Shown here piece by piece: positions 1,402 to 30,542 of a stretch of 64,000 nucleotides of DNA; position 1 is the stretch's first letter, and every line of letters begins with the position of its first letter. Under the pieces are notes generated by a model. That model was not told where the DNA came from and made no database searches. It saw only the letters and a program-made list of their open reading frames with translations. Source of the stretch: Candidatus Parcubacteria bacterium (GTDB lineage: Bacteria; Patescibacteriota; Saccharimonadia; UBA4664; JBIOIQ01). The stretch covers positions 872,265-936,264 of the forward strand of contig OY970378.1 in assembly GCA_963718875.1 (NCBI GenBank), in the 5' to 3' direction. The position numbers and the translations under genes are program-made.

Positions 1402-2412
1402 CTAGAAGCGCCGAGGAGGAGGCTTTGGAGACGAAGGTGGTTTTATAGATGCCGCAGATGGCGGTGGCTTAGGCTTAGATTTGGATTTGGATTTGCGCTG
1501 GCGGATAGCCAAAGCAGTGCAGACAATTGCCAAAAACGTAAAAGCGGTGACTACGATGATAAAAAAGAGAGAAGACATGATAAGGACATAGTGCGTTCCG
1601 AGATTTTCAGTGCGGCCCAGCATATTGACCGAGCCATAGACCCTAAACAGACCAAAAGAGGGAGCGCCCTTCCACTCTTGGCTAATCTTGCGGATTGTTT
1701 GCGGCAGCACCACGTGGCTGGTTTGCAGCTTGGCTTTAACGTTTCCAAATAAATCCGCTACGTATATGGAGGCGTCAGCTTGATAATGGACATTGCCCTC
1801 ATTGCTTAGACGAAGAGTAGTTTTGAGGGGTGGCTCGGTTTGCCAAAAGTCGGTTTTAAAACTTAGTAACCGTCCTTGCTCGTCTACCGCCCCGTTAACG
1901 CGCAGGTAAAGAATGGCGCCGACTCGCTTTTTACTAGCCACCCCGCTCGTGCCTTTAGGCTCCACCTTTGTTTCGGTAAAAATAACTGCGTAGTACCCTC
2001 CTGGGCCGACCCCGCTAGGCACAGAGATTTCGTATGGCACTGCCACATGCTTGCCGGGTTCTAGATGAAGTGGGACCTGGCTAGTTTTAATCCAACTAGC
2101 AACATTTGTTTGGGCGGGCTTGAGTTGAAAACTTTGAATATAGTCTTCCCCCGATACGTTATAGGGAGTGCTATATACCTTGAAGTCATAGGCTTCGGTT
2201 CCGTCGTTAATGAGAGTTAAGCTGCCACTGGCACTTTTACCCGCATCGAGCTCGTAGCGCAGGGAGGTAGGAGACATGGTCATGCTAAGACCCTGGGCGC
2301 CGGAGGACACTCCTGGAGTGGCGCCCAAAGCGCTACCCCCTGTTAGCAAAAAGTTAGCGGCTAAAGCAGCTTGAATAAATTTTTTTGTTGTAGCTGAGAA
2401 TAGTTTGTTCAA
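1402..2412 (-). CDS. DUF916/DUF3324-like (CscA-like) cell-surface protein with signal peptide, C-terminal TM helix and Lys/Pro-rich tail. The ORF runs to 2508 but the likely start is a TTG near 2412.
   Basis: Paralogous to 3083..3976, 6630..7553 and 14772..15932. Shared motifs ...EPGG[YHR][YF][AG]..F and ..GNVH.., then a C-terminal TM segment and basic tail (KSKSKSKPKPPP). Confidence 0.5.
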   Translation of the reverse strand: MNKLFSATTKKFIQAALAANFLLTGGSALGATPGVSSGAQGLSMTMSPTSLRYELDAGKSASGSLTLINDGTEAYDFKVYSTPYNVSGEDYIQSFQLKPAQTNVASWIKTSQVPLHLEPGKHVAVPYEISVPSGVGPGGYYAVIFTETKVEPKGTSGVASKKRVGAILYLRVNGAVDEQGRLLSFKTDFWQTEPPLKTTLRLSNEGNVHYQADASIYVADLFGNVKAKLQTSHVVLPQTIRKISQEWKGAPSFGLFRVYGSVNMLGRTENLGTHYVLIMSSLFFIIVVTAFTFLAIVCTALAIRQRKSKSKSKPKPPPSAASIKPPSSPKPPPRRF

Positions 2413-2426
2413 AGGCAAGACCAAAT

Positions 2427-3053
2427 TTAATTGGTTAGGGCGGTGTAGGTGACAATGTCGGTATAAGTTCCCTGCAAGACCGTGGCATTTGCCGCCACGC
2501 TGTACCAAACAGTAGTAACGTCGTTTGTACTGTTGGTAGAAGTTGTTTTGAGAGTGTTGGGTGATCCTGATGCCGGTACTCCTGCAAATGTGTCGGCAAC
2601 AAAGGCAGCGCTAGACTGCGAGCTGGTTGGGCCAGCTCCAAACCCGCCAGCTCCGTCCACTCTATACCCCCATCTACCTGAGGTTAGAGCAATGGGTGAT
2701 GCTTGAGTTCCGGTGGTGGCTGAAATGTTGTTGGAGCCTGAAACCAGGTTAGTATTGGCGTCAGCGTCTTCGAGTGTAAGGGTGTAGCCACTAATGTCGT
2801 TGGTACTTACCGTCACAGTATCGCTAGCAATGGTCTGGGCGCCGGCTACTGTAGGAAGAACATTTACATTTACTGTACCGCTGGTAGTAAACAGGCTAAT
2901 TATGGGGCTTATGACTGAACTAATAGTGGTATTGGCGCTAAAAACAGCCCCACTTAATACTGGGCTGATCATAATAAGCCCGCTTGCGACAATAGCTAGG
3001 CGTATCGGCTTAATATCTAGGAAGTGCATTTTTACCATAAGCTTTATAGACAT
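2427..3053 (-). CDS. Small secreted WxL-like protein. C-terminus ...GTYTDIVTYTALTN.
   Basis: Signal peptide MVKMHFLDIKPIRLAIVASGLIMISPVLSGAVFSA. S/T/G/A/N-rich body. C-terminal motif shared with four other proteins in the cluster. Confidence 0.5.
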   Translation of the reverse strand: MSIKLMVKMHFLDIKPIRLAIVASGLIMISPVLSGAVFSANTTISSVISPIISLFTTSGTVNVNVLPTVAGAQTIASDTVTVSTNDISGYTLTLEDADANTNLVSGSNNISATTGTQASPIALTSGRWGYRVDGAGGFGAGPTSSQSSAAFVADTFAGVPASGSPNTLKTTSTNSTNDVTTVWYSVAANATVLQGTYTDIVTYTALTN

Positions 3054-3082: not shown

Positions 3083-3976
3083 CTAGCGCTTAAATCTAGG
3101 ACGGAGTCGACGGAATAAGACAGCAACTATGATAACTACTAGCATAAGTAGGCCCACTACTCTCCAATAGCCAGTTATTGCAAAAACTAGCGAAACATGA
3201 CTTTTGCCGGTATCTTTGTCAGTAACTAAAAGCGGAATAAGACCAACATAACTACCTGCCTTGGAAAAGCTGAATTCACGCTTGTTACCGGGAAAAACTA
3301 GTGGGCCGTTCAAGTAAGTGCGCCTACCCCACCAGGCTGCTCGGACAGATACAGTTGGGTTATAGGCAATTGCCCTAGGAGCCTCCCCCACGTTTGCATA
3401 TTGGATTGTTCCCTTTATGCCATTGCCAAACTGAAAAAAAGCCGACTTCAGGCTAGAAATTGTGCCACTTTTTTTACCTGCCCCGCCGTTATCAAGGATA
3501 AGTAACGTTCCGGCTTTGGCGCTCTGCATGATGATATTGCCACTAACTGATGTGGGCTTTGGGACGGTGGCAAAAAAAATCGCACCATAAACTCCACCTT
3601 TAGGCAGCTTGTTGGGATCGATTGTAAAAGCAACTCTTACGGCTTCACGTGGACCTAAGTCGAATTCTGAGGCCGACACTGTAATACCTCTACTTATTGC
3701 AGCATCCTGATAAAATTGCAGGTCCCCGGCTAAGTTTATTTGTCGAAAAGCGCTGACTTCACTTTTTAGTGAAATAGTAGAGTCGGATGGGTTAGAAACA
3801 TCAACAAACCCCAACTTTGAGGTAGACCCGGTTAAGCTATCTTGATATTTGAGAGGCGAGACTGAAATAGTGGGGATACTAGCGAACAGCGGTTGTGGCC
3901 GTATCAGCCCACAGAGGATCAAACTAAAAAACGCCGGGATTACTAAACCAAGCCGCAGGATAAGCAGGCGCTTCAT
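3083..3976 (-). CDS. DUF916/DUF3324-like (CscA-like) membrane-anchored surface protein
   Basis: Signal peptide, ...KGGVYGAIFFATVP... motif, C-terminal TM (VVGLLMLVVIIVAVLF) and basic tail RRLRPRFKR. A 4-nt ATGA overlap with the upstream gene indicates an operon. Confidence 0.5.
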   Translation of the reverse strand: MKRLLILRLGLVIPAFFSLILCGLIRPQPLFASIPTISVSPLKYQDSLTGSTSKLGFVDVSNPSDSTISLKSEVSAFRQINLAGDLQFYQDAAISRGITVSASEFDLGPREAVRVAFTIDPNKLPKGGVYGAIFFATVPKPTSVSGNIIMQSAKAGTLLILDNGGAGKKSGTISSLKSAFFQFGNGIKGTIQYANVGEAPRAIAYNPTVSVRAAWWGRRTYLNGPLVFPGNKREFSFSKAGSYVGLIPLLVTDKDTGKSHVSLVFAITGYWRVVGLLMLVVIIVAVLFRRLRPRFKR

Positions 3977-5334
3977 GGTTTGAGCGTGGCAGTGTAAACC
4001 ACGGAATTCGTATAAGTACCAGACTTTTGAGATGTGGCAGTGTCGGCTCGAAACCGAACTGAGCTTTTTTCTGGTACCCCACCATTAAGTCCAGTGCGGG
4101 AGTGAAATATGGTGGGAGTGGTTGGAATAAAGGCAAAGTTAAAATTGGGCGTACTCCCCCACTTGACTTCTACTTGAGTCCCACTTATAAGGCTAAATCC
4201 TAGGCCCTTGGTTGTTCCCTCATTCCAGGCTGCCGGCGTTGCGATGTTTGCTGTAACACCCGGAATAGTGGTGATTCCGTCAACGGTATGAAGCAAGTCG
4301 TGGTCCTCTTGAATATAGAGCGAATAGCCACCGGCGTCAGTGCGCACCACAGCGTCGGCATCATAAATTTGGGAGATTCCTGGTGTAATGTTTGGCACCG
4401 TAAAAGCACTAGAAGAACCGGCGGCAGCAGAAGAAAAATCATTTTCTATCTCGCGAGGACTTAATGCCCGGCTATATAATTTAACCTCATCAATAGTGCC
4501 TTTAAAAAAGTTGGCTAGGTCATCTCGAGCGCCTAGCTTTAAAGTGTTGGTGTTGGTGGTGGTGGTGCCTATTGACCCCGTGCCAACCGGCGAGCCATCG
4601 ATGTAGAGTGTGGCGCTACCACCAGATTTGGTTACTGCTATGTGCGCAAACGTCCCCGTCGGAACTGCAGAACTACTAGTGATAGTTCGTAAAGCCGTGT
4701 CAAATCCTAAAAACTGTAATTTACCTGTGGTCTGCTCAATGCGCAGCTCGTAAGTATTGTTGGCTGAGCCATTGCCGGTGGTTTTAGCGGCAATGGTGGC
4801 ATTGTTGGCATAGTCGGTAGGTTTAACCCAAGCCTCGATGGTGAGCGATCCGGTCAAGTTTAAATTGGCATTACTGGCAATATTGGTATATTGATTTGAC
4901 CCATTCAAACCCAGTCCTTGGCCCAACTTACCGCTAACCCAAGTGGGCGTCCCGCTGGAATAACCATGGTTTTCGTTGGTGCTAACGTCATAGGCCACCG
5001 TGCCAACTCCCGTATCTAAGGGGTAATACGAGACGGTCCCACTAGGCAACACCGCCAAAGTTATCGACTGAGAAAGCTGAGCCACGTAACCTTGCGTCAG
5101 TTTGTAACTTTGACTCGATCCGCTTCCTACAACCCCTTCTCCACCGGAGTCATAAAGTTTATACGAGGTTGAGGAACCGGCTCCGCCAAAGGTGCTTCCA
5201 ACATTAGGATCTAACCGATAATTTGGACTGGTTAATGAGGTGGCATGGCCTGTGATTGGCAATGCCAAGATAAGCATAACAAACCCGGCTATGTAACGTC
5301 GCACCTCTGTACTCGAATTAAGCATTACCAACAT
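3973..5334 (-). CDS. Secreted LamG/concanavalin A-like lectin domain protein with a WxL-like C-terminus (...GTYTNSVVYTATLKP). Start taken at internal ATG 5334; the ORF as listed runs to 5613.
   Basis: LamG_3-like motifs (LTIEAWVKP, TFAHIAVTKSGGSATLYIDGSPVG, FKGTIDEVKLYSRALSPREI). Signal peptide MLVMLNSSTEVRRYIAGFVMLILALPITGHA. The ORF portion upstream of 5334 overlaps the IS element. Confidence 0.6.
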   Translation of the reverse strand: MLVMLNSSTEVRRYIAGFVMLILALPITGHATSLTSPNYRLDPNVGSTFGGAGSSTSYKLYDSGGEGVVGSGSSQSYKLTQGYVAQLSQSITLAVLPSGTVSYYPLDTGVGTVAYDVSTNENHGYSSGTPTWVSGKLGQGLGLNGSNQYTNIASNANLNLTGSLTIEAWVKPTDYANNATIAAKTTGNGSANNTYELRIEQTTGKLQFLGFDTALRTITSSSAVPTGTFAHIAVTKSGGSATLYIDGSPVGTGSIGTTTTNTNTLKLGARDDLANFFKGTIDEVKLYSRALSPREIENDFSSAAAGSSSAFTVPNITPGISQIYDADAVVRTDAGGYSLYIQEDHDLLHTVDGITTIPGVTANIATPAAWNEGTTKGLGFSLISGTQVEVKWGSTPNFNFAFIPTTPTIFHSRTGLNGGVPEKSSVRFRADTATSQKSGTYTNSVVYTATLKP

Positions 5335-5375: not shown

Positions 5376-6254
5376 GGTTCTGTCCACTAAAACGGAACAG
5401 ACATACTTTTAAGTAATATAAATGGGCTACTGAACAACTCTGGGTGGTTCTTTCTAGCCTGGAACTCTCTGAGTAATCCCGGTAAGAACTGATGCATGAA
5501 GCGGTCGCGGGTACGTCTGGTAAACCGATCCAGGCAGCTCCAGATCCCTTCAATGCGGTTGGTTGGTCCAAAGTGGCCAATGGAATGGTTGCAGATCTCC
5601 AGACCATAGCCAACTTCCATTAGGCCAAGGTGAGAGGCGTGAGCATCAGCAAAGATCAGGCTACCGAGAGTGGCATACTGATCGAGAAAACCTTCTATGC
5701 TATCCTGCTCACAATCTAGTATCTCAGCTAGTCTTACGAGGTTGGTTTCCCGGTCCACGATACCCATAACAATGTGTTGGTTACCATATTTCTGCCGACC
5801 TAGATAGCTCTGGTCTATCTCCAGTAGCCCGACTAACTGGCTCTTGTCGACTGGTAGTCTAGATCGCAAGCGTTCTAACCAGCGTTGGATCGTCCAGTAG
5901 GACAGCCCCGTTGAGGTGATAATGTCGCCAGGTGACTGCTTACCGCTCCAGCAAGTCACCAGTTCCAGAATCCTCCTCCAGCCGAGCTTAGACGACCCAA
6001 AGCCGACTTGTTTCTTTAAGCTCCATTTACGACGACAGGTGCCGCACCAAAGATACTGAGTAGTTATGTGGATGTTTGAGTGAGACATCCAAGGGCAAAT
6101 AGGGCCCTCGGGATAAAGATGTACTAGCACTTGGTTAAAACATTCTTGGTCTGTTACCGGTAGATCTGCTAATGTGGTCATTGGAACAAGTCTCCTTTTC
6201 TAACTGGTTAGTCCTAGTTAGATTGTAGCTTGTTCCGCTTTAGTGTAATGAACC
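5376..6254. mobile_element. IS1595-family insertion sequence (879 bp) with ~25-bp imperfect terminal inverted repeats and a 9-bp direct repeat (GAAAGGGCG) at both flanks
   Basis: Left end GGTTCTGTCCACTAAAACGGAACAG. Right end, reverse-complemented, is GGTTCATTACACTAAAGCGGAACAAG. Flanking GAAAGGGCG at 5367-5375 and 6255-6263. Single transposase ORF inside. Confidence 0.75.
5387..6181 (-). CDS. IS1595-family (ISXO2-like) DDE transposase with N-terminal zinc-ribbon
   Basis: 264 aa. N-terminal CPWMSHSNIHITTQYLWCGTCRRKW zinc ribbon. Length and architecture typical of IS1595. Sits inside the inverted-repeat-bounded element. Confidence 0.75.
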   Translation of the reverse strand: MTTLADLPVTDQECFNQVLVHLYPEGPICPWMSHSNIHITTQYLWCGTCRRKWSLKKQVGFGSSKLGWRRILELVTCWSGKQSPGDIITSTGLSYWTIQRWLERLRSRLPVDKSQLVGLLEIDQSYLGRQKYGNQHIVMGIVDRETNLVRLAEILDCEQDSIEGFLDQYATLGSLIFADAHASHLGLMEVGYGLEICNHSIGHFGPTNRIEGIWSCLDRFTRRTRDRFMHQFLPGLLREFQARKNHPELFSSPFILLKSMSVPF

Positions 6255-6629: not shown

Positions 6630-7553
6630 CTAGTCTTTGCCGCTGAGTGCTCTGAAAGCCTTTTTGAATCTTTTTCGGTTACGCCAGAGCAAGAAGTACA
6701 ATACGACGAGTAGAGAGGCGGCTATGATGAGCAGTTTGTATGGAACAACTGTAAAACTGGTTTCGGCTGTTAACTGTTGTTTGTCGCCGTTGTTTAATAC
6801 CAATGTGGCCTTATAAAAACCAAACATCCACTTTTTATTAAGGGTTGTTTCGGTGCGACGGATAGCGCCAGGAATAACATTCTTGGGCTCCAGCTTGACC
6901 GTGGCAACCTTCATACCCAATAGGTTCTTAACCGTGATTGTGCCTGTCGGCTTGGCGTGAACGTTGCCAGTATCTTTTATACGAGTTTCAAACTTGATGG
7001 GCCCAATCTCGTAAAAGGCCTTTTCGGTTTTAAAACTGGCAATTTCAACCCTCTCATTGGCATTACCGGCAATACGTAAAAATATTAGTGCGCCAAGCTG
7101 CTGCTTAACCGCCGCCCCGGATTGCCCACTCGGTAGCGTGGTCTCCAGAGTGTGGAATACTAACGATCCATAGCGTCCGCCAGGCTCGGCGTTCAAAGGA
7201 ATGTCGATTTTGAAACTAACCGATTGGGTCCCCTTAGCAGGAACGTTTATTACATCGGGTGTAGCGCTAAACCATGGCGCTAAAGAATAAAGGTCGTTAT
7301 TAGTAGTGAGGTCCACTTGCCCCTCTTCGCCTTTAGCAACAAAATTATTGCGGTCAGCTGCCAGGACTAGTGGCGAGCCAGTAAGATTGATGATTTTGAA
7401 TGAGCCGGTTACCGATTGGCCGGGATTAGCCGATATTTCTAAAGATGGCGGGGATATAGCAAACCCAAGTGAATCCGCATGCGCTTGCCCAGCTATTCCA
7501 ACAGAGCTTGCGAGCAAACTTATGACAACTAAAAAGCGAACCAAGTATTTCAT
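6630..7553 (-). CDS. DUF916/DUF3324-like (CscA-like) membrane-anchored surface protein
   Basis: Signal peptide MKYLVRFLVVISLLASSVGIAGQAHA. Motifs NAEPGGRYGSLVF and DTGNVHAKPTGTITVKNLLGMKV. C-terminal TM plus RNRKRFKK tail. Confidence 0.55.
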   Translation of the reverse strand: MKYLVRFLVVISLLASSVGIAGQAHADSLGFAISPPSLEISANPGQSVTGSFKIINLTGSPLVLAADRNNFVAKGEEGQVDLTTNNDLYSLAPWFSATPDVINVPAKGTQSVSFKIDIPLNAEPGGRYGSLVFHTLETTLPSGQSGAAVKQQLGALIFLRIAGNANERVEIASFKTEKAFYEIGPIKFETRIKDTGNVHAKPTGTITVKNLLGMKVATVKLEPKNVIPGAIRRTETTLNKKWMFGFYKATLVLNNGDKQQLTAETSFTVVPYKLLIIAASLLVVLYFLLWRNRKRFKKAFRALSGKD

Positions 7554-7875: not shown

Positions 7876-8970
7876 TTAATAAATGGGGGTGCAGGTGTAG
7901 ATGACGGTGGTGGTGTAGGTGCCTGGTTTTGTAACACCAGAGATGCCAACTTGATGGCCGACGCGGGTGGTTTGTGAAGCTACCGGGGCGGCATCGTAGG
8001 CGACCTCTGCATTGCTGGTAGTGTTAGCCGCCCAGACATCAGGAGTGCTGGTAAAGCGGTTGACGGCTAAGGCTTGCAAGGTGGCGTCATTGGTAGTGTA
8101 GCCGTACGACTCTGTTCCGGCGGCTGAAAATGAGGTTGGTGCGGCGTTGGTTCCAGTGTGGTCAGCAATTTGATTAGCGCCCGAGGTGGGTTTAGCGGTA
8201 TAGCGTATGAATACCGTATACCCGCTGCCGGCGTTGGTGGCGACGCTTAAATCTTGGCAAACAATTGAATTAGAGGCCGTTGTTACGGTACCAAAGGGAA
8301 TGGTGGTAGACGTACTGGCCTGCGTCGATGTTGCCCCATTACAACTAGCTCCGGATGCGACCGTATTAACTGTAAAGCTTAATGTAGGGTCGACGGTTAA
8401 TGACAGGGTCGATCCTGGGGTGAAGATAAACGCTAGAGTTGTATTGTCTACGGGGCTAGTGGTGCAATCGACGTTGTCATAAGTACTAAACTGCATGAAG
8501 TAGCTAACGTTAGGGATGGAGCTGTTTACAACTCCGGCCAATACAAAAGTGGCGTTAGTGGTAGTAGACGGGGTGATGCCAGTGTTGTGGGTATAAGTTA
8601 TGTTATTGGCGGTTGGGGTTAGCGTCCAGCCAGTGCCAGAGCTATTAACTAAAGTTGATGATGCGGCGGTGACGGTGGCAGAGGCGGCGGTGAAGCCGTT
8701 GCCAATATTAACCGCTGAGCTTGGGCTGGTACTAAAAACAGCTTTAATACATTTAATACTGGCGCTGGTAACGTTGCTAGCTGTAGTCGTATAAGTAGAG
8801 GTGGCACTTGGACGAGGGTCGCTTAGAGCGACCGATGCAGGGTTTAGTTGAGCAGCATTAACAATTCCAAAGTTGAGCGACATCGTGCCCAACAAGGTAA
8901 CCCAAGCCATCCATAGTCTCATTAAACGGCCTTGTGAAGCAATGATTTTGATTTGACTATGTTTTTTCAA
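7876..8970 (-). CDS. Secreted WxL-like surface protein, C-terminus ...GTYTTTVIYTCTPIY
   Basis: Signal peptide, then conserved N-terminal segment ...ALSDPRPSATSTYTTTAS.... Thr/Ser/Ala/Asn-rich body. C-terminal motif shared with the 15934 and 17364 paralogs. Confidence 0.55.
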   Translation of the reverse strand: MKKHSQIKIIASQGRLMRLWMAWVTLLGTMSLNFGIVNAAQLNPASVALSDPRPSATSTYTTTASNVTSASIKCIKAVFSTSPSSAVNIGNGFTAASATVTAASSTLVNSSGTGWTLTPTANNITYTHNTGITPSTTTNATFVLAGVVNSSIPNVSYFMQFSTYDNVDCTTSPVDNTTLAFIFTPGSTLSLTVDPTLSFTVNTVASGASCNGATSTQASTSTTIPFGTVTTASNSIVCQDLSVATNAGSGYTVFIRYTAKPTSGANQIADHTGTNAAPTSFSAAGTESYGYTTNDATLQALAVNRFTSTPDVWAANTTSNAEVAYDAAPVASQTTRVGHQVGISGVTKPGTYTTTVIYTCTPIY

Positions 8971-9068: not shown

Positions 9069-10769
9069 CTACTTTTCATTAGACTCATCATCGGGAGTTT
9101 GAGATTCCTGATTTGGGGTTTTGCGCTTAGACCTGCCACGCCAATCGGTAATCATCAAGAATCCGCGCTGAGCCTTGGCAGTCCCGCTCCACACCCACCC
9201 CAGGGGCTTCCAAGCTGCAGCTTTACGCAGCCAGGCAATAAGGTGCGGCTCATGAGCTGTATGCGCAATCTGATGAGCTCCTTTTAGCCTTAGCCATTTT
9301 TCCCTACGCCAAGCTAAAAATAACACTACATTAATAATAGTTGCGACAATAAGCAGAACCACAACTAGCGGCAGCAGCAAGCGCTGGTACCAAGGAGGTG
9401 GAACTGGTTTTTTGAGTGCAGTGGCAGTAATAACTAATTTGAGGTCTGGCGATGGAGAACTTTCGGCGCCAACACTATTGACCCGACTAAAACGAATGGT
9501 GTAATTGCCTGGGAACAATTGCGGTTTATAAGTATATTCCCAAGTGATGCCATTGGCAAAGCCGCCGGCTCCTTTGTCTTTGGCCTTGGAAGCTTTTTTG
9601 TCTTTGGCTAAAAATTGTTCGAGCAGCTTACCATTTAAAAAGACTGATATGGTATCCCCTGCCTCCGACTGCCCAATATAGTTCATGGGTTGTAAAATAA
9701 CTAACGACGAAGGCCAAGTCAGTATCTTGGGAGGGGCAATGCCTGTAATTTCGAAGTCGGTTTTGGCTTCTTTTGTGTTACCGGCTTTGTCGTAGGCAGT
9801 TACTACAATGGTGTGTTTACCTGGGCGCTGTTTGGGGATGGCGTCGCCAGGATTTAAGGGAAAGGCTTCTCCATCATCAATTTTGGCTGTGTAGCGGTCG
9901 ATGCCAGAGATGCCGTCATTAGCTGTAAAACTTGCCTTGGGAGTAGGATTTGAAGCATTGCTGCCGTTGTCCATTTTGACGCTAAAATCATCTGGTGGGC
10001 TAGAATCTATATGAATATCAAAATGGACAGTGCTGCCACCGGTTTGATTAGAGCCTTTTAAATGGAAATACCAAGTCCCTTCATCTAGGTCGTATGAAGT
10101 ATTAATAGTGCCGTTATTGGGACTATTTGGAACGGTGCCTGGGTTACGGTCAACCGCAAATGAGTAATTACCAACGGCCGTTGTAGCAAACCAATTTAGC
10201 TCCACGCGGCGGCTGGTATACCATTGGTTTTCGTTGGGATGAGTTCTGGAGTTTACTGTCAGTAAGGGCACCGGGGGCTTAGGAGTGTTAACGGTAAAAG
10301 TGGCGCCACTGGAGCAGCACAATACATTTGTACCCATGCCATCATTGGCCAGTATTTGACTACCGGCCACATTGACGGTATACGTGCCTGGCGTGGTGGC
10401 ATTAAATATTACGGTCACAACGCGTCCGCCGCTGCCGTTGTAGCCAGGGTTAGACAGCCCACCCGAAAAATAAACTGACGAGCCTGAACCAACAGGCCCG
10501 GCACCTCCCCCACTGGCCCAAGTGGTAAATATTGAGCCCGAGGTAGAGGCAAATGAATATTGTAAGCCGGGGGTCCAGGTAACGGTGGCTTCACCAGCAT
10601 TAATAGCTTGGCCGCCTGAGTTAATCATTATACCCACGCGAATCACGTCGCCAACATTGTAGGCGCCAGAGGATGGTGAAGCGTAAAAGCTGGCGTTGGC
10701 GGCGGCACGGGCTGTGGGGGCCGGGATAAGGCTAGCCGATAAGGAAGAAACGAAAACGGCTAGTAGCAT
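9069..10769 (-). CDS. Large surface protein: signal peptide, N-terminal cohesin-like domain, Ig-like repeats, C-terminal TM helix and cytoplasmic tail. ORF runs to 10913; likely start at MLLAVFVSS.
   Basis: Cohesin-like segment GDVIRVGIMINSGGQAINAGEATVTWTPGLQYSF...GRVVTVIFNATTPGTYTV. TM LLLPLVVVLLIVATIINVVLFLAW near the C-terminus. Confidence 0.55.
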   Translation of the reverse strand: MLLAVFVSSLSASLIPAPTARAAANASFYASPSSGAYNVGDVIRVGIMINSGGQAINAGEATVTWTPGLQYSFASTSGSIFTTWASGGGAGPVGSGSSVYFSGGLSNPGYNGSGGRVVTVIFNATTPGTYTVNVAGSQILANDGMGTNVLCCSSGATFTVNTPKPPVPLLTVNSRTHPNENQWYTSRRVELNWFATTAVGNYSFAVDRNPGTVPNSPNNGTINTSYDLDEGTWYFHLKGSNQTGGSTVHFDIHIDSSPPDDFSVKMDNGSNASNPTPKASFTANDGISGIDRYTAKIDDGEAFPLNPGDAIPKQRPGKHTIVVTAYDKAGNTKEAKTDFEITGIAPPKILTWPSSLVILQPMNYIGQSEAGDTISVFLNGKLLEQFLAKDKKASKAKDKGAGGFANGITWEYTYKPQLFPGNYTIRFSRVNSVGAESSPSPDLKLVITATALKKPVPPPWYQRLLLPLVVVLLIVATIINVVLFLAWRREKWLRLKGAHQIAHTAHEPHLIAWLRKAAAWKPLGWVWSGTAKAQRGFLMITDWRGRSKRKTPNQESQTPDDESNEK

Positions 10770-10909
10770 AAATGAGCGACCCCACGACCTTCGCGCTTGA
10801 ATCCAGTTCAAGGAAGAACCGAGAACCACAGAGAGGCGTACCCGGAAGTACGCTGACCGAGGATCGCAGGCTCTGACGACGAAATGGGCCAAGCGAGTAG
10901 GTCGTAATG

Positions 10910-11440
10910 TCATTTGATGTCTACCTCGATGGGCTTGAGCTGCAAGGGAATTGAGGTACCCAAACCATCATTAAGTTTTACGGCGGTATTACCCGTAAAA
11001 GTTAGTTTGGTTTTGAGGGGTTTTTTAGCCACCAGGGTTACACTACCAACTTTGCCTTGGCCGCGAAAACCAGGGTTAAAAATGCCACCCACAAAACTAA
11101 TGTCGCCGCTGGTATTAGAAAATTTTGGTTCATTGGGAACCCAAATAGTAAAGAATGTCTGATCCTTGCTGATGGAATCTACCTGGACCACCTTGGGGTC
11201 AAACTTTAAATATATCTCAGCCGCATTAATGGTTTGGCCAGCGGTATCAATAACAATTGGTAGTGTTAATCGGTGGTTACTACCCGAAACGGGCTGAGGT
11301 GCAGTAATAGTGGCCTCTCTCGAGGTTGGGGTTTTATTAAATAGCAAATAGCCGCCTATGACTGATATGCCAAACAGGGCAATAAAATGCCAGCGGCGGT
11401 GAGTTGGACGATTTGGTTGAGGTTTTCCCACAGTATCCAT
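10910..11440 (-). CDS. Membrane-anchored cohesin-domain protein
   Basis: N-terminal TM (WHFIALFGISVIGGYLLF). Cohesin-like LTLPIVIDTAGQTINAAEIYLKFDPKVVQVDSI...GDISFVGGIFNPGFRGQGKVGSVTLVAKK. 4-nt overlap with the downstream gene. Confidence 0.6.
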   Translation of the reverse strand: MDTVGKPQPNRPTHRRWHFIALFGISVIGGYLLFNKTPTSREATITAPQPVSGSNHRLTLPIVIDTAGQTINAAEIYLKFDPKVVQVDSISKDQTFFTIWVPNEPKFSNTSGDISFVGGIFNPGFRGQGKVGSVTLVAKKPLKTKLTFTGNTAVKLNDGLGTSIPLQLKPIEVDIK

Positions 11441-13944: not shown

Positions 13945-14772
13945 CTACCCCGTCCAGTAAAACAACATGATCGACAGGTCGGTAAGGTTGGTTTTGGTGT
14001 CATCATTAATATCAGCCGGTTTATTGATGTTGGATTGCAAGTAAAAGAACATGAGGATAGAAAAGTCGGTTAGGTTGACGCGGTTGTCGTTATTTAGGTC
14101 AGCCGAAAGTACCACCGTAAAACTGGCCGGAGGCGTTTGCGGGCTTTGGTTAGCACTCGGGTTTTGCACCACACTGCTGGCAGTGTAAGTACCAAGGTGC
14201 AAGGTTCCGGAAGGTGAGGTTTGCCAATTACCGATGGAATCGGACGGGCTGGTAGTTGCAAACGAATCGCTGTATTTTGCGCCGCTCCAAAAGGTTGTGA
14301 CCGTGGAGTCTTGGCGGGTTGTCCCAACTATTGATTGAATTTGGGGCCGTTTGATGGGGTTTTTAATAATCTGGAATGTGGTGGGCAGTAAATAGCCACT
14401 CAGGGTAGTGGTATAGGCAGGCAAAATCGTGACGTCATTACTAACAGTAGCCGAAACTCGGCCGGATACATCCGTGGCATGAATGCTGTAGGTGGCTAAC
14501 CCTTGGGATTGGTTGGTAAAAGTATTATCAAAACTGCTGTCAGCTCCTGCAGTTTGAGTGCCAATAACCACGCCGTTACGCTCAAACGTTACCAACGCCC
14601 CTGGCGAGGCCTCCCCTACAAACTGAACTCCCCCGTTTTGCACTGGCAGCTCAGCCCCAATAGTTGATTCCTCGGTAAGTGCTGTTATGGCCATAATGGG
14701 GGCGCTTAAAGAGCTGAAAAAAAATAAAGCCGCTAAGGCTGTTGACGGCTTAACGTTAAAACGGGCACGCAT
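13945..14772 (-). CDS. Secreted protein with a C-terminal type-I dockerin-like duplicated repeat
   Basis: Signal peptide. C-terminus ADLNNDNRVNLTDFSILMFFYL...ADINDDTKTNLTDLSIMLFYWTG is a tandem D-x-N-x-D-x-x-x-N-x-x-D Ca-binding repeat typical of dockerin. Start overlaps the stop of the upstream gene. Confidence 0.65.
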   Translation of the reverse strand: MRARFNVKPSTALAALFFFSSLSAPIMAITALTEESTIGAELPVQNGGVQFVGEASPGALVTFERNGVVIGTQTAGADSSFDNTFTNQSQGLATYSIHATDVSGRVSATVSNDVTILPAYTTTLSGYLLPTTFQIIKNPIKRPQIQSIVGTTRQDSTVTTFWSGAKYSDSFATTSPSDSIGNWQTSPSGTLHLGTYTASSVVQNPSANQSPQTPPASFTVVLSADLNNDNRVNLTDFSILMFFYLQSNINKPADINDDTKTNLTDLSIMLFYWTG

Positions 14773-15932
14773 TAGCGACCCTTAATTAAAACCCTGGCAG
14801 CCGACGCAAGACGCTTGCGCAAGACAAACAGCAACACAAGAATGACGATGGCCATAATTAGCACCCAGAGCGGGAAGGCCCAAAAAACAGTTTCAGCGGT
14901 CAAAATTTTGTTTTGCGATCCATAAACGGCTGCCACTTGGGCGCGGTAATATCCACCCCACAGCGACTTCGTAGGCCAAATCACACTAATACGACGTTCG
15001 CCCCCAGGAAATACATTGCGGGGGTCAAGCGCTACTTGATCAACCTTGCGTCCAAAAATATCATAAATCGTAACTGTTCCGGCTGGCTTAAAGTGAACGT
15101 TGCCGGAGTTTTTAAATACCAGATCGAAAGCAATGGGACCTTGATTAAAGTAGCTTTTGGGCTTTTCGTTATTTAGGTCCTCGCCCGAGGCCACGTAGAT
15201 TTTGGTCTTGCCGTCGGAGCCCGTAACTGTTTGCCAGTCCCCAATAAAATTTTTGGTGCGAAAGCTTTTAATACTGCCTGCTTCAGTAACAGCCCCACTA
15301 ACCTTCATCAGAATAAGCGAGCCAACTCGCTGAATTACGCTGGCGCCGGTAGAATTGGAACTTGCAGCCACGACGGGGTTGAATAATACAGTGGCAAAAT
15401 GACCGCCGGGCTCAGCATTTTTGGGAACACGGATAGTAAATGGAACCAGAGCTGACGATTTGGCAGCTAAAGGGATCTGAGTGGTTGTAAAACTAAACCA
15501 ACTGGCAAAGGCGTTAGTCTTTGCGTCATCCGCTACCTTTACCGACCCTTCAGTTCCTGCCACCGTAAAATCTTGAGCGCTGGCAGTTAGTGTTACGGCC
15601 GCATCAGACTCATTGGTTACCCGAATGGTGTTACTTAAGGTGTCTCCTGGGTTAGCGCTTAGTTCATAAGTGGGTGGAGATACAGTAATACCTTGGGTTG
15701 TGGCCGCCGATACCGGTTGGCCGATTGCTATTAAAGCGATAGAGGCCAGAATTAGGCTGCCAAAAGATTTTTTTATAGATAAGAAACTCACTAGGACTTT
15801 CTCACTTGAGTGCAGTTTGGATGCAAATATCGAGTACCGTAAACGAGGCGTAGTTGACCTACGTCGAGTGCGGAACGGAGATTTTGCGCCGAAATGTGCC
15901 AAGTGTGATAGTCCTATAGTACTTATGTTCAT
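14772..15932 (-). CDS. DUF916/DUF3324-like (CscA-like) membrane-anchored surface protein
   Basis: Motifs KNAEPGGHFATVLF and NSGNVHFKPAGTVTIYDIFGRKV. C-terminal TM plus RKRLASAARVLIKGR tail. Confidence 0.55.
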   Translation of the reverse strand: MNISTIGLSHLAHFGAKSPFRTRRRSTTPRLRYSIFASKLHSSEKVLVSFLSIKKSFGSLILASIALIAIGQPVSAATTQGITVSPPTYELSANPGDTLSNTIRVTNESDAAVTLTASAQDFTVAGTEGSVKVADDAKTNAFASWFSFTTTQIPLAAKSSALVPFTIRVPKNAEPGGHFATVLFNPVVAASSNSTGASVIQRVGSLILMKVSGAVTEAGSIKSFRTKNFIGDWQTVTGSDGKTKIYVASGEDLNNEKPKSYFNQGPIAFDLVFKNSGNVHFKPAGTVTIYDIFGRKVDQVALDPRNVFPGGERRISVIWPTKSLWGGYYRAQVAAVYGSQNKILTAETVFWAFPLWVLIMAIVILVLLFVLRKRLASAARVLIKGR

Positions 15933-15933: not shown

Positions 15934-17036
15934 CTAAAAGGTTGGAGTGCAAGTGTAAACCACTTTCCCGGTATATGTACCCGCCGGCGAGAATACGGTA
16001 AAGCGCAGTCGATATCCTATATTAACCGCATCGCTGGCCACGCTGTTGTTGGCATGGGCTACTTCGGCATCGGTATTGGTGACCCCGGCAAATAAATTAT
16101 CGGCCGTCGTAAAGCGGTTAGCCACCCCAGATAAACTGGCGTCGCTAGTAGTATAGCCAAATAATTCAGCTGGTCCGCCAGGCGTAGCCGTTGGACTCGT
16201 GTTTGTTCCCGTCCAGTCAGGTATAGAAGCTGCTCCATTTTTTAATACATCGCCGGCGGTGGTAAACTTTTAATAGTTACTTGATAGCCGCTGCCAGCAT
16301 TAGTGCTAGTCGTAAGTGTTTGCGCACAATCATAGTCAGTGTTGGGTGATAATGGCTGAATAGCTGAGCCAAATGTGACGGAGGTAGCAGTATCATTACA
16401 AAGGCTAGCTGTGCTTAAGGCACCTTTATAAATAGTGGAAGCTGGAGTCCCGGTAACATTAAAAGTTAAGGTAGGATCGATAGTAAGGCTGACTGTAACG
16501 GCCACTACAATCACGTAGGCAATGGTGGCGGAGTCGACTTCGGTGGTGTAAGTATCATCAGAATAGGTAGTAAGTCGTACAAAATAAGTCCCGGGGTTGG
16601 TGGGATTTGTAACATTACTAAACACAATTTGTTGGGATCCCGTGGGAGCCGCCACATTCGAGCTATTTTTGATCTGAAGTGAGCTCGTAACAGAGTCATT
16701 GGTCCAGCCTGAAGAGTCGCCATAGCCCACCGGTTGGCTGGCAAGGGTGGCGGCGGATGCTGAAAAGCCAGTTGGAGCTACACAACTACCAGAGCTGGTA
16801 GTGCACATTTGAGCTCGGAAAGCCTTGAGTACCGTACTACTGCCGACGGTAAAACTATAACTGTAGGAAACGTTACTCTCGGTCGGCTGGGTGTCCGATA
16901 ACGATACGCTGGCGCTACTAATAGCACCAGCGGCGGCACTGGCCGAAACCCACAGAAGCTTACTGGCAACTAATACCAATAAAACAACAATAGTAGCGTG
17001 CAATCGCACGGGGTACTTGGATATTTGCTTAGTCAT
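15934..17036 (-). pseudogene. WxL-like surface protein paralog of 17364..18308, split by a frameshift at an A4/T4 tract (~16264-16273) into ORFs 16242..17036 and 15934..16125
   Basis: The N-terminal ORF ends ...GYQVTIKSLPPPAMY*. The other frame continues ...FTTAGDVLKNGAASIPDWTGTNTSPTATPGGPAELFGYTTSDASLSGVANRF... to ...GTYTGKVVYTCTPTF and is colinear with the paralog. Confidence 0.55.
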
Positions 17037-17363: not shown

Positions 17364-18308
17364 TTAGAATACGGGGGTACAGGTATAGACTAGAGTGCCT
17401 CGGTATACACCTGCTTCTGTTACGCCGGTGTATTTGAGTCGGTAGCCCACATTTACTTGATCATTGGCAATGGCCGTAGCATTGTAAGCTACTTGATCCG
17501 GAGTGGTGGTAAGACCGGCAAACAGATCATCCGAAGCGGTAAATCGAGTGGCTACGCCGGATAGGGTGGCGTCGTTAGTGGTGTAGCCAAACGTTTCGGC
17601 GGGAGTGACGGCAGTAGAGGCAGGCGTGGCGTTTGTTCCGGTGGAGTTAGTGATGCTCTTAGTAGCATCACTAATGAGCTTTAGGAAGTCACCACTGGTT
17701 TGCTTGCCTTGGACGGTTACTTGGTAGCCACTATTAGCGTTGGTACTGGTAGCCAGCTGTTGAGCGCAGTCATAGGTAGTGTCAGCTGAAAGTGGCGAGG
17801 CTGGACTACCAAAGGTAACGGCGGTGGCAGTATCGGTACATTTGGCGTCAACTGCCAGGGAACCTTTAAAGGTGGTGGCTGGAGCAAGTCCAGAGACAGT
17901 AAAGCTTAGAGTCGAGTCGATCGTGGCACTTACCAGTACGCTAGGAACCGTTACAAAACCAATCACAGTGGCGTCAACCAGAGTGGCGCACGTGTCATCA
18001 CTGTAGGTGTTTATTTCAATATAAAATGTGCCTCCGCTTGATGAAGTGGGATTCGTAAGTAACTGGATGGGGGTGGTGATTTGGGTACCAGATGTCACTG
18101 ACGCACCAGTGACATTGGTTTCTTTTACCGTTCCAGCCGTACTGTTGTCGATAGTCCAGTTGGCAGCCGTTAAGTTAGTGAAAACACCGTTGGTTGCGGC
18201 AGAGTTAGAAAAACCGGTCGGCGTTGTACCTTGACCGGCATTGGGCGAAGTACTCCAACGATACGTAAAACACTCAAGCGTGGCGGTAGTACTAGCCATC
18301 CAGCTCAA
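17364..18308 (-). CDS. Secreted WxL-like surface protein (...GVYRGTLVYTCTPVF). The true N-terminus probably extends to a GTG near 18503 through a second frameshift.
   Basis: The in-frame upstream sequence encodes ...AAGGLTNASATLSDPRPDAPAASVSY, matching the paralog N-termini. A signal peptide (RRNSTVNGRFRRLFNAVIVASIGLFTFNGLFSAV) lies in another frame, separated at a T/A-rich stretch around 18385-18400. Confidence 0.5.
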   Translation of the reverse strand: MSWMASTTATLECFTYRWSTSPNAGQGTTPTGFSNSAATNGVFTNLTAANWTIDNSTAGTVKETNVTGASVTSGTQITTPIQLLTNPTSSSGGTFYIEINTYSDDTCATLVDATVIGFVTVPSVLVSATIDSTLSFTVSGLAPATTFKGSLAVDAKCTDTATAVTFGSPASPLSADTTYDCAQQLATSTNANSGYQVTVQGKQTSGDFLKLISDATKSITNSTGTNATPASTAVTPAETFGYTTNDATLSGVATRFTASDDLFAGLTTTPDQVAYNATAIANDQVNVGYRLKYTGVTEAGVYRGTLVYTCTPVF

Positions 18309-18614
18309 AGTATAACTTACGCTGGCTGCAGGAGCGTCGGGGCGGGGGTCGCTTAATGTTGCACTAGCGTTAGTTAAACCGCCGGCGGCAAAACGGCCGA
18401 AAACAGACCATTGAACGTAAATAATCCAATACTAGCTACTATAACTGCGTTAAATAAGCGCCGAAAGCGCCCATTAACGGTAGAATTTCTCCTCACAAGA
18501 ACTCCTCACCTTTTATTTGTTGCATTAAGCATAACCATAATGAAAGGCTTGGTCAATAGTTTTTGCGAATCAAGAATCATGAATTATGAATAAAGGGAGA
18601 AGCGCAGCTTTGAT

Positions 18615-28268: not shown

Positions 28269-28323
28269 AGTAGAGATAGGCTAGCGCCATGCACAGCAAT
28301 CAAACCCGACAGTCTCTTTACGC

Positions 28324-28725
28324 TTAAGCATCTTGAATTACTGCCAGAATGTTACCAGCAGGATCTTTAAACCATGCAATTGACGGGCCATAGCCCTCCT
28401 TGCCGCGGGCAATGCCTTTGGCGTCGGTTATTATTGGGCCATCTTGGTAGCTTTCAAACTTAACGCCGGCGGCCGTAAGCGCATCGACCGTTTGATCGAT
28501 ATTGGGAACCACAAAATTGAGCACTGTGAAAGTAGCTGGCATGTGTTGGTCGCCTTTAGGATAAAGCATTACCATGCCTCCCCCGGCCAGACGAATGTTG
28601 AGCAAATCGGGCATATGCGGATCGTCAGACACATCCAGACTTAAGGTGTTTCCATAAAAAGTTTTGGCTACGGCAACATCATTGACTGAAAAACTACTGA
28701 ATGCTTGTATGTCTTTAAACATCAT
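28324..28725 (-). CDS. VOC (glyoxalase/bleomycin-resistance fold) family protein
   Basis: 133 aa, paired beta-alpha-beta-beta-beta pattern. Weak direct motifs. Confidence 0.5.
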   Translation of the reverse strand: MMFKDIQAFSSFSVNDVAVAKTFYGNTLSLDVSDDPHMPDLLNIRLAGGGMVMLYPKGDQHMPATFTVLNFVVPNIDQTVDALTAAGVKFESYQDGPIITDAKGIARGKEGYGPSIAWFKDPAGNILAVIQDA

Positions 28726-28863
28726 AGTCTCCTAATTACATGTCTATTCTACTCTTTTTTATGGCTAGATTGAGATATGCACGAGATACCGTGCTCATGA
28801 CCAACTATTACTTTTAACCTATTTACGTGTCTTTAAATTAATGTGCTTTAATAAAAGTAGTAA

Positions 28864-29292
28864 ATGGAGAGCAAAGTGGCAGAAATTAATGCATATTTAA
28901 TGTTTAGGGGTAATTGTCGTGAGGCAATGGAGTTTTATCATAACTGTCTGGGCGGGGAGCTTTCGATTCAATCTGTGGGAGATTCACCCATGGGAGAGCA
29001 AGCTCCACCGGAAGCCAAAAATAAAATTATGCATGCGCAGCTTAAAGGCGACGGATGGCGGTTTTTCGGCTCCGACATGATGGACGACTCCCCTGCTACT
29101 CAAAGTAATACTGTTTCGGTTTGCATGGTTGGGGCCAACATTGACGAAATAAAACCTGCGTTTGATAAGTTATCGCAGGGTGGCAAGGTGACCCACGACT
29201 TGAAAAAGGAGTTTTTTGGGACATATGGCGACTTGGTAGATAAATACGGCTTTATCTGGATGTTCCAAGCCGATTCACCGGCACAATCTTAA
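28864..29292 (+). CDS. PhnB-like / VOC family protein
   Basis: AYLMFRGNCREAMEFY N-terminal motif typical of the PhnB/3-demethylubiquinone methyltransferase-like domain. Confidence 0.6.
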   Translation: MESKVAEINAYLMFRGNCREAMEFYHNCLGGELSIQSVGDSPMGEQAPPEAKNKIMHAQLKGDGWRFFGSDMMDDSPATQSNTVSVCMVGANIDEIKPAFDKLSQGGKVTHDLKKEFFGTYGDLVDKYGFIWMFQADSPAQS

Positions 29293-29297
29293 AACTA

Positions 29298-29753
29298 ATG
29301 CGAGAGATAAATCGTATTATCGTAGCGGCCATTATTTTTAGTAAAGACGAAAAGGTTTTGATGGGCAAAAAAGATCCCGGAAGTGGAGGTGTCTACATTG
29401 ATAGTTGGCATATCCCTGGAGGCGGGGTTGAAGAGGGCGAGACGCTTGATCAAGCCCTTGTAAGGGAGGTGCGGGAGGAAGTAGGTATTGATATATCGCC
29501 TTATAAGATTAAAAAGCGGGCAACGATTGGGCATGGGAGCTCCGAAAAAACTCTGAGCAATGGTGAACGGGTAATTTGTCATATGGAGTTTAATCATTTT
29601 GAGGTACTTCTGGACGAAGTATCCACAGACATTAAATTAGAACTGGCCGATGATCTTGTTGAAGCTAGGTGGTTTAGCAGAACGGAGCTCAAGCAAGTAC
29701 AACAAATTCCAGGAGGCAAAGAGTTGTTTAGGGAAATGGGTTATCTAGACTAG
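29298..29753 (+). CDS. NUDIX hydrolase
   Basis: Nudix box GGGVEEGETLDQALVREVREEVGI. Confidence 0.85.
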   Translation: MREINRIIVAAIIFSKDEKVLMGKKDPGSGGVYIDSWHIPGGGVEEGETLDQALVREVREEVGIDISPYKIKKRATIGHGSSEKTLSNGERVICHMEFNHFEVLLDEVSTDIKLELADDLVEARWFSRTELKQVQQIPGGKELFREMGYLD

Positions 29754-29770
29754 GCTGATATAATCAAGCT

Positions 29771-30250: not shown

Positions 30251-30257
30251 TGGCATC

Positions 30258-30518: not shown

Positions 30519-30542
30519 AGTTCGCCTAGATTCGTTAAGCTC

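Follow-up and report, generated by a model that had tools for sequence, protein, structure and literature searches.

The 64,000-nucleotide stretch of DNA analysed (the window) contains five pilin-like genes, all on the minus strand, together with four genes for chaperone-like proteins with a C-terminal transmembrane (TM) helix, arranged so that each pilin gene or pair of pilin genes is followed by one for a TM-anchored chaperone-like protein with two Ig domains. The five pilin-like proteins have the common ending G-x-Y-x-x-x-[VL]-x-Y-T-[CA]-..., and the five C termini to which an earlier note on this DNA had drawn attention (GTYTTTVIYTCTPIY, GVYRGTLVYTCTPVF, GTYTNSVVYTATLKP, GTYTDIVTYTALTN and GTYTGKVVYTCTPTF) were all found on that strand. 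This motif is not a product of chance, since it closes a homologous C-terminal domain (CTD) of ~170 aa common to all five proteins and is kept across relatives.

All protein genes described below lie on the minus strand. The gene at 7876..8970 encodes a probable rod-type Pam pilin (probable start at M17–M21), which we call PamB-like on the basis of its size and architecture: a signal peptide, an N-terminal β-sandwich, a linker strand GSTLSLTVD, in which G186, S187, L189, L191 and V193 hardly vary, and an incomplete Ig domain at the C terminus, whose last β-strand, by DSSP on the models, is GTYTTTVIYTCTPIY (7879..7923), with the stop codon directly after it. It has 628 homologues, and those with a named source are mostly from Saccharimonadia or Patescibacteria. 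Beside it, 6630..7553 encodes a membrane-anchored, PamC/D-like chaperone-like protein with a signal peptide, two Ig domains and a C-terminal TM helix with a basic tail, a homologue of the WxL-interacting proteins (WxLIP) that matches PF06030 at 0.029. Two rod-type pilin paralogues, at 17364..18496 (ending in GVYRGTLVYTCTPVF) and 15934..17036 (ending in GTYTGKVVYTCTPTF), have directly downstream of them a WxLIP-like chaperone-like gene with a C-terminal TM helix (14772..15932; PF06030 at 2.4e-4), which is called as a 376-aa version in another assembly and is the first sequence of our chaperone-like family profile (A3).

The remaining modules carry other kinds of subunit. A candidate tip adhesin at 3973..5334 combines a Laminin_G_3 domain (ConA-like lectin; PF13385 at 1.3e-32) with a Pam CTD, matched by the CTD HMM at 1e-32 and ending in GTYTNSVVYTATLKP, and its stop codon is overlapped by a chaperone-like gene with a C-terminal TM helix (3083..3976), assigned by alignment with the other three and an iterated HMM. 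A single-domain pilin at 2427..3053, a PamT-like candidate tip or cap ending in GTYTDIVTYTALTN, is matched by the CTD HMM at 2e-24 and accompanied by the fourth chaperone-like gene (1402..2508), with a TM helix and a Lys/Pro-rich tail and a true start probably downstream of 2427. Between the pilin modules lie two putative accessory surface-protein genes (9069..11440; Cohesin at 5.4e-6, Big_13 at 6e-6), one for a cohesin-domain protein (10910..11440) and one for a 614-aa Ig-like protein with a C-terminal TM helix (9069..10913), and a four-gene block with these genes also occurs in an independent assembly. An Ig-like protein with a C-terminal dockerin (13945..14772; Dockerin_1 at 3.2e-5, Big_6 at 4.3e-6) is a possible partner of the cohesin proteins. 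An Rfam scan of the window gave one tRNA-Gln and no rRNA.

Two of the five pilin genes are interrupted by −1 frameshifts in this sequence, so that among the gene spans proposed earlier the endings stand but 15934..17036 and 17364..18308 are not intact genes. At 15934..17036, a frameshift at ~16264–16271 leaves 16242..17036 and a C-terminal piece in another frame; the intact orthologue in CPR locus L011 has 374 aa. The span 17364..18308 covers the 3′ portion of a longer gene; that gene has its GTG start at 18496, carries its signal peptide in the upstream frame and is broken at ~18390–18393 within a T run. Looking up UppS proteins as a check on the frameshifts gave no match. The gene calls (without DNA) of an independent short-read assembly contain an uninterrupted 219-codon ORF across the ~16264–16271 site, for which reason the frameshift there may be a sequencing error.

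The CTD and its ending are widely conserved. An exhaustive search with the CTD HMM returned 2165 cluster representatives at E ≤ 1e-3, and in the 150 of these that were listed the domain ends at the C terminus or at most two residues from it. The CTD is carried by 106 ORFs in 42 CPR loci, most of which repeat the pilin/chaperone-like synteny; the named homologues and loci belong mostly to Saccharimonadia, WWE3, Woesebacteria, Levybacteria, Kaiserbacteria and Microgenomates, with a few named for other taxa. Alignment across related genomes, which the earlier note had proposed as a check, bore the motif out: all 120 listed orthologues of 7876..8970 terminate in some variant of PGTYTTT[VI]IYTCTP[VI][YF]. 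Positions counted from the C terminus in 129 non-redundant representatives, chosen as ending in an aromatic residue (Phe in 72, Tyr in 57), had Gly at −15 in 122, Tyr at −13 in 127, Val, Ile or Leu at −9 in 126 and Pro at −3 in 102. Because of these counts we regard three positions as the conserved core, namely the first Tyr, Pro at −3 and the aromatic last residue. Cys does occur at −5, but it is a minority state (29 of 129, against 74 with Ala and 15 with Val) and not as frequent as had been suggested; its being unpaired is a point against the pilin reading developed below. Three kinds of terminus were distinguished, ...TP-x-Y/F in rod subunits, ...T-x-K/R-P in LamG tip subunits and ...T-N in single-domain subunits, and the K/R-P class is kept in 15 loci.

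The motif had been read as a Tyr-for-Trp variant of the distal WxL motif, which would make the CTD a diverged WxL domain holding secreted proteins non-covalently on the CPR cell wall. Much in the window invites this comparison: the position at the C terminus is identical, there is a similar pattern (Y-x-T-T-[VL]-x-[YW]-x-[CL]-x-x-P), another match, colinear with the first, pairs G-Y-T-V with G-W-x-L at the proximal motif, the partner genes are true WxLIP homologues, and small and large proteins share the domain as in WxL clusters (PMC10599100). Nonetheless, PF13731 was matched by none of the five proteins (E ≤ 1) and by none of 60 relatives (E ≤ 10), while all 15 plasmid WxL proteins used as positive control matched it (best 2.5e-72). 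In the converse searches, the Pam pilin model had no match among these 15 genuine WxL proteins, and real WxL domains scored no better with the Pam CTD HMM than reversed or shuffled ones. The HMM–HMM comparison that had been suggested gave, with profiles of 60 to 253 sequences for the Pam CTD and 15 to 135 for WxL, only short local matches (hhalign P 0.016–0.028, probability 2–3%), and enlarging the profiles to 253 and 135 sequences respectively did not raise the signal. Reversed profiles and other β-sandwich domains served as controls in place of block-shuffled decoys, which make a weak null since shuffling leaves the motif block intact. Unrelated β-sandwich controls reached the same level, the Pam CTD against chaperone domain 1 giving P 0.012 and WxL against the Pam N-terminal domain P 0.005. 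Judged by the refuting condition that the earlier note had set, the motif has the character of a generic hairpin signature of Ig type. The Trp itself is absent, the comparable sites being G-Y-T-V and I-Y-T-[CA], and the distal Tyr at −7, its proposed equivalent, is present in 110 of the 129 representatives and replaced by Leu, Phe, Met or His in the other 19 (~15%). Nor did we find in the 64-kb window an LPXTG protein or a sortase, and the homologues PamA and PamB are seen by cryo-EM as long detached filaments, not as wall-bound monomers. We thus regard wall anchoring by a diverged WxL domain as highly unlikely. The WxL-like reading holds at the level of the system, given the WxLIP-homologous neighbours, but finds no support as membership of the WxL domain family. 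The weak CTD–WxL matches do fall exactly on both WxL motifs and in colinear order, and a deep homology of the two domains is possible.

A different assignment came from NF058581 (CPR_Pam_pilin_C, 'Pam pilus system pilin subunit'), which matched three of the five window proteins over the full length of the model, 7876..8970 at 1.3e-8, 17364..18496 at 6.2e-7 and 2427..3053 at 0.051. The match of 7876..8970 pairs residues 220–364 with positions 2–148 of the 148 in the profile and scores 35 bits, against a curated cut-off of 55; because the scores fall under the cut-off, the window proteins appear to form a more distant branch of Pam. They are linked to much stronger matchers through their relatives, 43 of 60 diverse family members matching NF058581 (best 4.5e-45); one of the 60 matches NF058579 (PamT) at 2e-30. 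Pam pili were recently reported from ultrasmall CPR bacteria. Their subunits PamA and PamB consist, by cryo-EM, of an N-terminal sandwich, a donated linker strand and a truncated Ig CTD and assemble by donor-strand exchange; their operon also encodes the TM-anchored PapD-like chaperones PamC and PamD, whose roles are themselves AlphaFold-based in the preprint, and the single-domain PamT (bioRxiv 10.64898/2026.03.03.709456). The same combination of N-terminal β-sandwich, conserved linker strand and truncated Ig CTD was found here, in an operon with membrane-anchored PapD-like chaperone genes and in a family mostly restricted, by its named homologues and loci, to CPR/Patescibacteria.

Structural models point in the same direction. 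The AF2 model of full-length 7876..8970 has two β domains (pLDDT 88), and that of the CTD, built from an alignment of window and database sequences, reaches pLDDT 92.8; the final strand by DSSP spans residues 351–362 of the full protein and 169–175 of the CTD. In a Foldseek search of the PDB, the CTD matched CfaB, the PapG pilin domain, CS20, Csu, FimA/G, PapA, the TasA fibre and the Saci_0406 thread, that is, subunits of donor-strand-exchange filaments. The matches of the two-domain model (integrins, MSCRAMMs) are of a generic tandem-Ig kind and were set aside as uninformative. Sequence searches of the PDB yielded chance-level matches with the full-length profile (best E 0.35, phycobilisome proteins) and none at E ≤ 10 with the CTD profile.

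The high confidence of the CTD model bears on whether the motif might be a C-terminal signal read by an envelope machine for sorting or processing (sortase, exosortase or β-signal type). Its terminal aromatic residue and alternating hydrophobics do resemble the β-signal of outer-membrane proteins, but the strand is integral to the folded domain, neither a hydrophobic helix nor a basic tail follows it, and the window contains no LPXTG-type signal or sortase motif. Saccharimonadia, moreover, generally count as bacteria with neither an outer membrane nor Bam, and we hold such a signal to be extremely improbable. Alternatively, the motif might be the last hairpin of any Ig sandwich, with a tyrosine-corner-like G-x-Y and an alternating strand that serve fold stability only. 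Endings of the form G-x-Y-x-x-x-V-x-V are found in many bacterial Ig-like families, and the same C-terminal hairpin aligns to the segment 'VPxxAePGGxYgxIxF' in the first Ig domain of the chaperones as well as it does to WxL. However, conservation of a terminal aromatic residue, with nothing beyond it among the matches listed, would be unusual for a merely structural strand, and the termini are class-specific, each class having its own chaperone gene. In chaperone-usher pilins, too, the C-terminal strand borders the acceptor groove. The same is true of the environmental fibrils TLP-1a/b (PDB 9IKJ, 9IKK), donor-strand-exchange fibres whose acceptor cleft has the C-terminal strand at its edge (PMC11494351). 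A role in fold stability alone therefore seems unlikely.

The family to which the proteins belong, their domain architecture and fold class, the layout of the locus, and the extreme conservation of the motif and its place at the very C terminus make it, in our view, highly probable that the locus encodes a Pam-type pilus of a Saccharimonadia (CPR) bacterium and that its five proteins are pilus subunits. The shared Tyr-rich motif is most likely the last β-strand of the subunit-joining domain and not a WxL wall anchor. Nine 'hypothetical' genes of the window would thereby become one coherent pilus locus, and the strikingly conserved C terminus would be explained by a part in assembly instead of in wall attachment. 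In the mechanism that we propose, the five subunits would be exported by Sec, each with a CTD that forms an incomplete Ig-like domain short of one strand, and G-x-Y-x-T-T-[VI]-[IV]-Y-T-[CA]-T-P-x-[YF] would be the last CTD strand, bordering on one side the groove that the absent strand leaves open. This groove would first receive a strand of the membrane-anchored chaperone-like protein whose gene lies directly downstream and then the linker strand of the next subunit (G-S-T-L-S-L-T-V-D in 7876..8970), such donor-strand exchange giving a linear fibre with no need of an usher or outer membrane. From the analogy with chaperone-usher pilins and TLP-1, we infer that the motif strand pairs with the donor strand. 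The three termini would mark three subunit classes, each with its own adjacent chaperone gene, and their variants may set chaperone specificity or subunit order.

The closest counterpart among known systems is the Pam pili of Candidatus Mycosynbacter amalyticus (pilins PamA/B/E/T, chaperones PamC/D), likewise from a CPR (Saccharimonadia) host, which share with the present locus two-domain pilins in which the linker strand is conserved and the Ig CTD truncated, an HMM match over the whole CTD model, and an operon with a single-domain subunit and TM-anchored two-Ig chaperone-like genes. In contrast to that system, there are four chaperone-like genes here instead of two, a LamG-lectin subunit class with its own ...K/R-P terminus, and cohesin and dockerin genes within the locus, whereas no RbmA-like PamR was identified and no ATP synthase genes are among the annotated ORFs, which make up the lesser part of the window. 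The LamG-lectin subunit and the cohesin and dockerin genes are candidate host-recognition parts, since CPR bacteria live attached to host bacteria and Pam pili have been proposed to make the first contact with the host (bioRxiv 10.64898/2026.03.03.709456). Chaperone-usher pilins (Pap, Fim, CFA/I, Csu) provide the best structural matches and have in common with the window proteins an incomplete Ig fold, a PapD-like chaperone and a conserved C-terminal strand in which a Gly stands ~14–15 residues before the end and the last or an adjacent residue is aromatic. They differ in that here the host is monoderm, the chaperone is membrane-anchored, an extra N-terminal domain is present, the donor strand would be an internal linker rather than an N-terminal extension, no usher is found among the annotated ORFs and no sequence homology is detectable, so the locus would work like a chaperone-usher system by analogy only, without being a member. 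TLP-1 differs in being Flavobacteriales-like and tubular, with an N-terminal donor strand passed from protomer n+4 to n and 16% identity.

The chaperone-like proteins, on their sequence profiles, are clear homologues of the WxL-interacting proteins. Their family profile aligned with that of WxLIP (DUF916/DUF3324) over 263 columns (hhalign 99.1%, E 6.5e-19) and, at E 2.3e-7, matched chains 9i25_C and 9i1y_A of the solved EfmWxLIP1, PF06030 was matched by 35 of 53 family members, and there were weak matches to the PapD-like, ASH and MSP families; NCBIfam has no models for Pam chaperones. A WxLIP-type gene (DUF916, DUF3324 and a TM helix) is thus clustered with the CTD genes, as in WxL loci, and because of this homology Pam and WxL loci are related, homology at the level of the domain and wall anchoring being unproven. 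The connection is mentioned neither in the Pam preprint nor in the WxLIP paper, and our literature search found WxL together with donor strands or chaperone-usher systems in two general reviews only.

It is conceivable, and we put it forward tentatively, that the WxL/Csc loci of Bacillota and the CPR pam loci are two branches of an ancient monoderm, usher-less chaperone system for surface fibres, in which WxL proteins might polymerise as well. WxLIP would then be a membrane-anchored PapD-like chaperone and not an adhesin, and the 'wall-binding' WxL domain a strongly diverged pilin domain that accepts a donor strand, its two motifs being the counterparts of the Pam CTD hairpins G-Y-x-V and Y-T-[CA]. 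The donor strand could be the N-terminal S-N-G-x-I-x-F, followed by a Pro-rich linker, that WxL proteins share with the small LPXTG protein of their locus. If homology does extend to the subunits, a large Gram-positive family of surface and virulence proteins (Enterococcus, Listeria, Lactobacillus) would need a new mechanistic model. WxL proteins are described as peptidoglycan-bound, not filamentous, and the window differs from WxL/Csc clusters in having no significant CTD–WxL sequence or profile similarity and no Trp, LPXTG protein or sortase. In AlphaFold models, the sandwich of the WxL domain is completed by a strand of its partner (PMC10599100). As in the WxL/Csc clusters (PDB 9I1Y, 9I25), the homology of the partner extends over both Ig domains and its C-terminal TM helix is the same, the domain stands at the extreme C terminus of small single-domain and large multi-domain proteins, and the positions of the two aromatic motifs coincide.

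All five C-terminal endings quoted in the earlier note were found on the minus strand of the window, four from simple ORFs and the fifth from a gene (15934..17036) split by a frameshift, and the motif closes a domain (CTD) of about 170 residues that is homologous in all five proteins. A variant of PGTYTTT[VI]IYTCTP[VI][YF] terminates 120/120 listed orthologues of 7876..8970. The CTD is present in 106 ORFs of 42 CPR loci and, in an exhaustive HMM search, in 2165 cluster representatives at E ≤ 1e-3; among 150 listed representatives of these 2165, whose proteins range from 118 to 3739 aa, it ends at the C-terminus or at most two residues from it. Conservation was counted in 129 non-redundant representatives, all with an aromatic last residue: G at −15 (122), Y at −13 (127), V/I/L at −9 (126), Y at −7, the proposed Trp equivalent (110, with L, F, M or H in the other 19), A, C or V at −5 (74, 29 and 15), P at −3 (102), and F or Y at −1 (72 and 57). 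By these counts the conserved core consists of three residues: the first Tyr, the Pro and the aromatic one at the end. The motif is real and strongly non-random, and the Cys ascribed to it does occur, at −5, but as a minority state (29/129). Among 253 aligned Pam CTD sequences, Cys patterns were C-C-C in 48, the two other Cys only in 41, the −5 Cys alone in 19 and none in 114; C360 of 7876..8970, at −5, is odd and possibly unpaired.

NCBIfam model NF058581 (‘CPR_Pam_pilin_C, Pam pilus system pilin subunit’) matched 7876..8970 end to end (E 1.3e-8), 17364..18308 (6.2e-7) and 2427..3053 (0.051), each below the curated cut-off. The same model was matched by 43/60 diverse family members (best 4.5e-45), which ties the window proteins to members with much stronger matches; NF058579, for PamT, was matched by 1/60. 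Cryo-EM structures of the PamA and PamB filaments of Ca. Mycosynbacter amalyticus are reported to show an N-terminal beta-sandwich, a linker strand donated to the subunit that follows and, as acceptor, a truncated Ig-like CTD; the operon also codes for PamC and PamD, TM-anchored chaperones resembling PapD/FimC, and for the single-domain PamT (bioRxiv 10.64898/2026.03.03.709456). AlphaFold models agree with this architecture, the full-length one (pLDDT 88) having two beta domains and that of the CTD a pLDDT of 92.8. With the CTD as Foldseek query, the hits were nearly all filament subunits with donor-strand complementation: CfaB, the PapG pilin domain, CS20, Csu, FimA/G, PapA, TasA and the Saci_0406 thread. 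The best explanation of the motif, which we regard as quite probable, is that it forms the last strand of Pam-type pilins and lines their groove; this locus is a new member of that kind, described in 2026.

In minus-strand order the locus comprises four modules, in each of which a chaperone-like gene comes after a single pilin-like gene or a pair of them: 18496..17364 and 17036..15934 with 15932..14772; 8970..7876 with 7553..6630; 5334..3973, bearing a Laminin_G_3 lectin domain (1.3e-32), with 3976..3083; and the single-domain 3053..2427 with 2508..1402. All four chaperone-like proteins are mutually homologous, each with two beta-sandwich domains between a signal peptide and a C-terminal TM helix with basic tail. 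The majority of the 42 related loci repeat the pilin-then-chaperone arrangement, and homologues with a source name come mostly from Saccharimonadia or Patescibacteria. Eight MAGs with pam loci typical of CPR (those of L001, L021, L025, L027, L030, L032, L033 and L035) are titled Nanoarchaeia, Pseudomonadales or Gammaproteobacteria and are probably mislabelled bins.

In the models, the motif forms the final strand (residues 351–362 of the full protein, 169–175 of the CTD). The donor strand of TLP-1 enters between beta2 and the C-terminal beta7, and in chaperone–usher pilins the groove is bordered by the C-terminal F strand, which has a Gly conserved some 14 residues before the end and an aromatic residue near the terminus. 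Linker residues G186, S187, L189, L191 and V193 are nearly invariant in the orthologue alignment. We infer from this that the motif strand is the groove wall, which would pair initially with a strand of the chaperone and later with the linker of the neighbouring subunit; such a role would explain why the protein has to end exactly at the motif. Three terminus classes were found (...TP-x-Y/F; ...T-x-K/R-P on LamG subunits; ...T-N on single-domain subunits), each adjoining its own chaperone gene, which suggests that the termini may bear on chaperone specificity or on the order of subunits.

The earlier note had read the motif as a Tyr-for-Trp variant of the distal WxL motif, possibly part of a divergent anchoring domain. 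For comparison we used authentic WxL loci on plasmids of Enterococcus, Bacillus, Listeria, Lactiplantibacillus and Lactococcus, with 15 proteins from plasmid loci, 15/15 matching the WxL domain PF13731, and 120 more obtained via database search. PF13731 was matched by 0/5 window proteins and 0/60 Pam CTDs, the Pam model by 0/15 WxL proteins, and real WxL domains scored no better against the Pam CTD HMM than reversed or shuffled ones. HMM–HMM comparison, the check proposed with that reading, gave only short local hhalign matches between CTD and WxL at any profile depth (P 0.016–0.028, probability 2–3%). These matches are colinear and coincide with both WxL motifs, but controls with presumably unrelated sandwiches score equally: Pam CTD against chaperone domain 1 gave P 0.012, with the same hairpin aligned to ‘VPxxAePGGxYgxIxF’, and WxL against the Pam N-terminal domain P 0.005. 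Judged by the refuting condition set in the earlier note, the WxL-variant reading is not supported; it fails as family membership and as function, with nothing found in support of wall anchoring.

The WxL reading nonetheless led to a genuine relation between the two kinds of locus, through the chaperone-like partner. The CPR chaperone-like family profile matched the WxL-interacting protein (WxLIP) EfmWxLIP1, whose structure is solved (chains 9i25_C and 9i1y_A), over both domains (E 2.3e-7), 35/53 members matched PF06030 WxLIP_PGBD (best 1.2e-7), and hhalign against seven Bacillota WxLIPs gave 99.1% (E 6.5e-19, 263 columns). Domains 1 and 2 scored 97% and 60% against their own WxLIP counterparts, and cross-domain controls 0.3%. 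Judged by these profiles, chaperone-like partners and WxLIPs are unambiguously homologous. In an AlphaFold prediction, a WxLIP strand fills a gap in the WxL sandwich with parallel pairing, the WxLIP being read as an adhesin by the authors (PMC10599100); as predicted, this pairing has the geometry of donor-strand complementation. The Pam preprint mentions neither WxL nor DUF916, and in the literature searched only general reviews treat WxL together with donor strands or chaperone–usher systems. Past the signal peptide, 103/120 small WxL proteins of Bacillota start with S-N-G-x-I-x-F and a long Pro-rich linker, and 9/15 WxL proteins have this N-terminal segment in common with NF053819, an LPXTG family encoded in the same loci. 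The arrangement resembles a donor-strand extension and is one to be expected of a donor-strand subunit and an anchor subunit.

Two of the pilin genes kept their quoted endings but not their extents. An uninterrupted ORF at 15934..17036 is precluded by a −1 frameshift at about 16264–16271 in an A/T run, and the gene holding 17364..18308 starts not at 18308 but at GTG 18496, with a −1 frameshift at about 18390–18393 in a T run. Both sites sit a few bases from CCGCCGGCG. Since an independent short-read assembly (Logan ERR12037361) has an uninterrupted 219-codon ORF called across the first site, that frameshift at least may reflect a sequencing error in a homopolymer, and not pseudogenisation or phase variation.

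Among the pilin modules, 9069..11440 and 13945..14772 encode a protein with a cohesin domain, an Ig-like TM protein of 614 aa and another Ig-like protein that bears a dockerin; such a cohesin–dockerin pair within a CPR pilus locus could tether accessory proteins to cell or fibre. The chaperone-like gene 6630..7553 and the LamG pilin gene are separated by an IS1595/ISXO2-like transposase gene (5387..6181; PF12762, 8.3e-8); the corresponding ORFs abut in related locus L011, leaving no space for it. Adjoining the pilus locus of this Saccharimonadia genome, 20412..24962 carries UbiA-family prenyltransferase, quinol-oxidase-type COX2 (COX_ARM motif) and COX1 genes, and about 8 kb at 28300..36300 holds only small ORFs (70–170 aa) on both strands. 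Elsewhere, giant proteins of 1400–3700 aa end in a Pam CTD (loci L021–L027; representatives P0278, P0301, P0323, P0348 and P0385), so Pam fibres may have very large adhesin-like proteins plugged into them.
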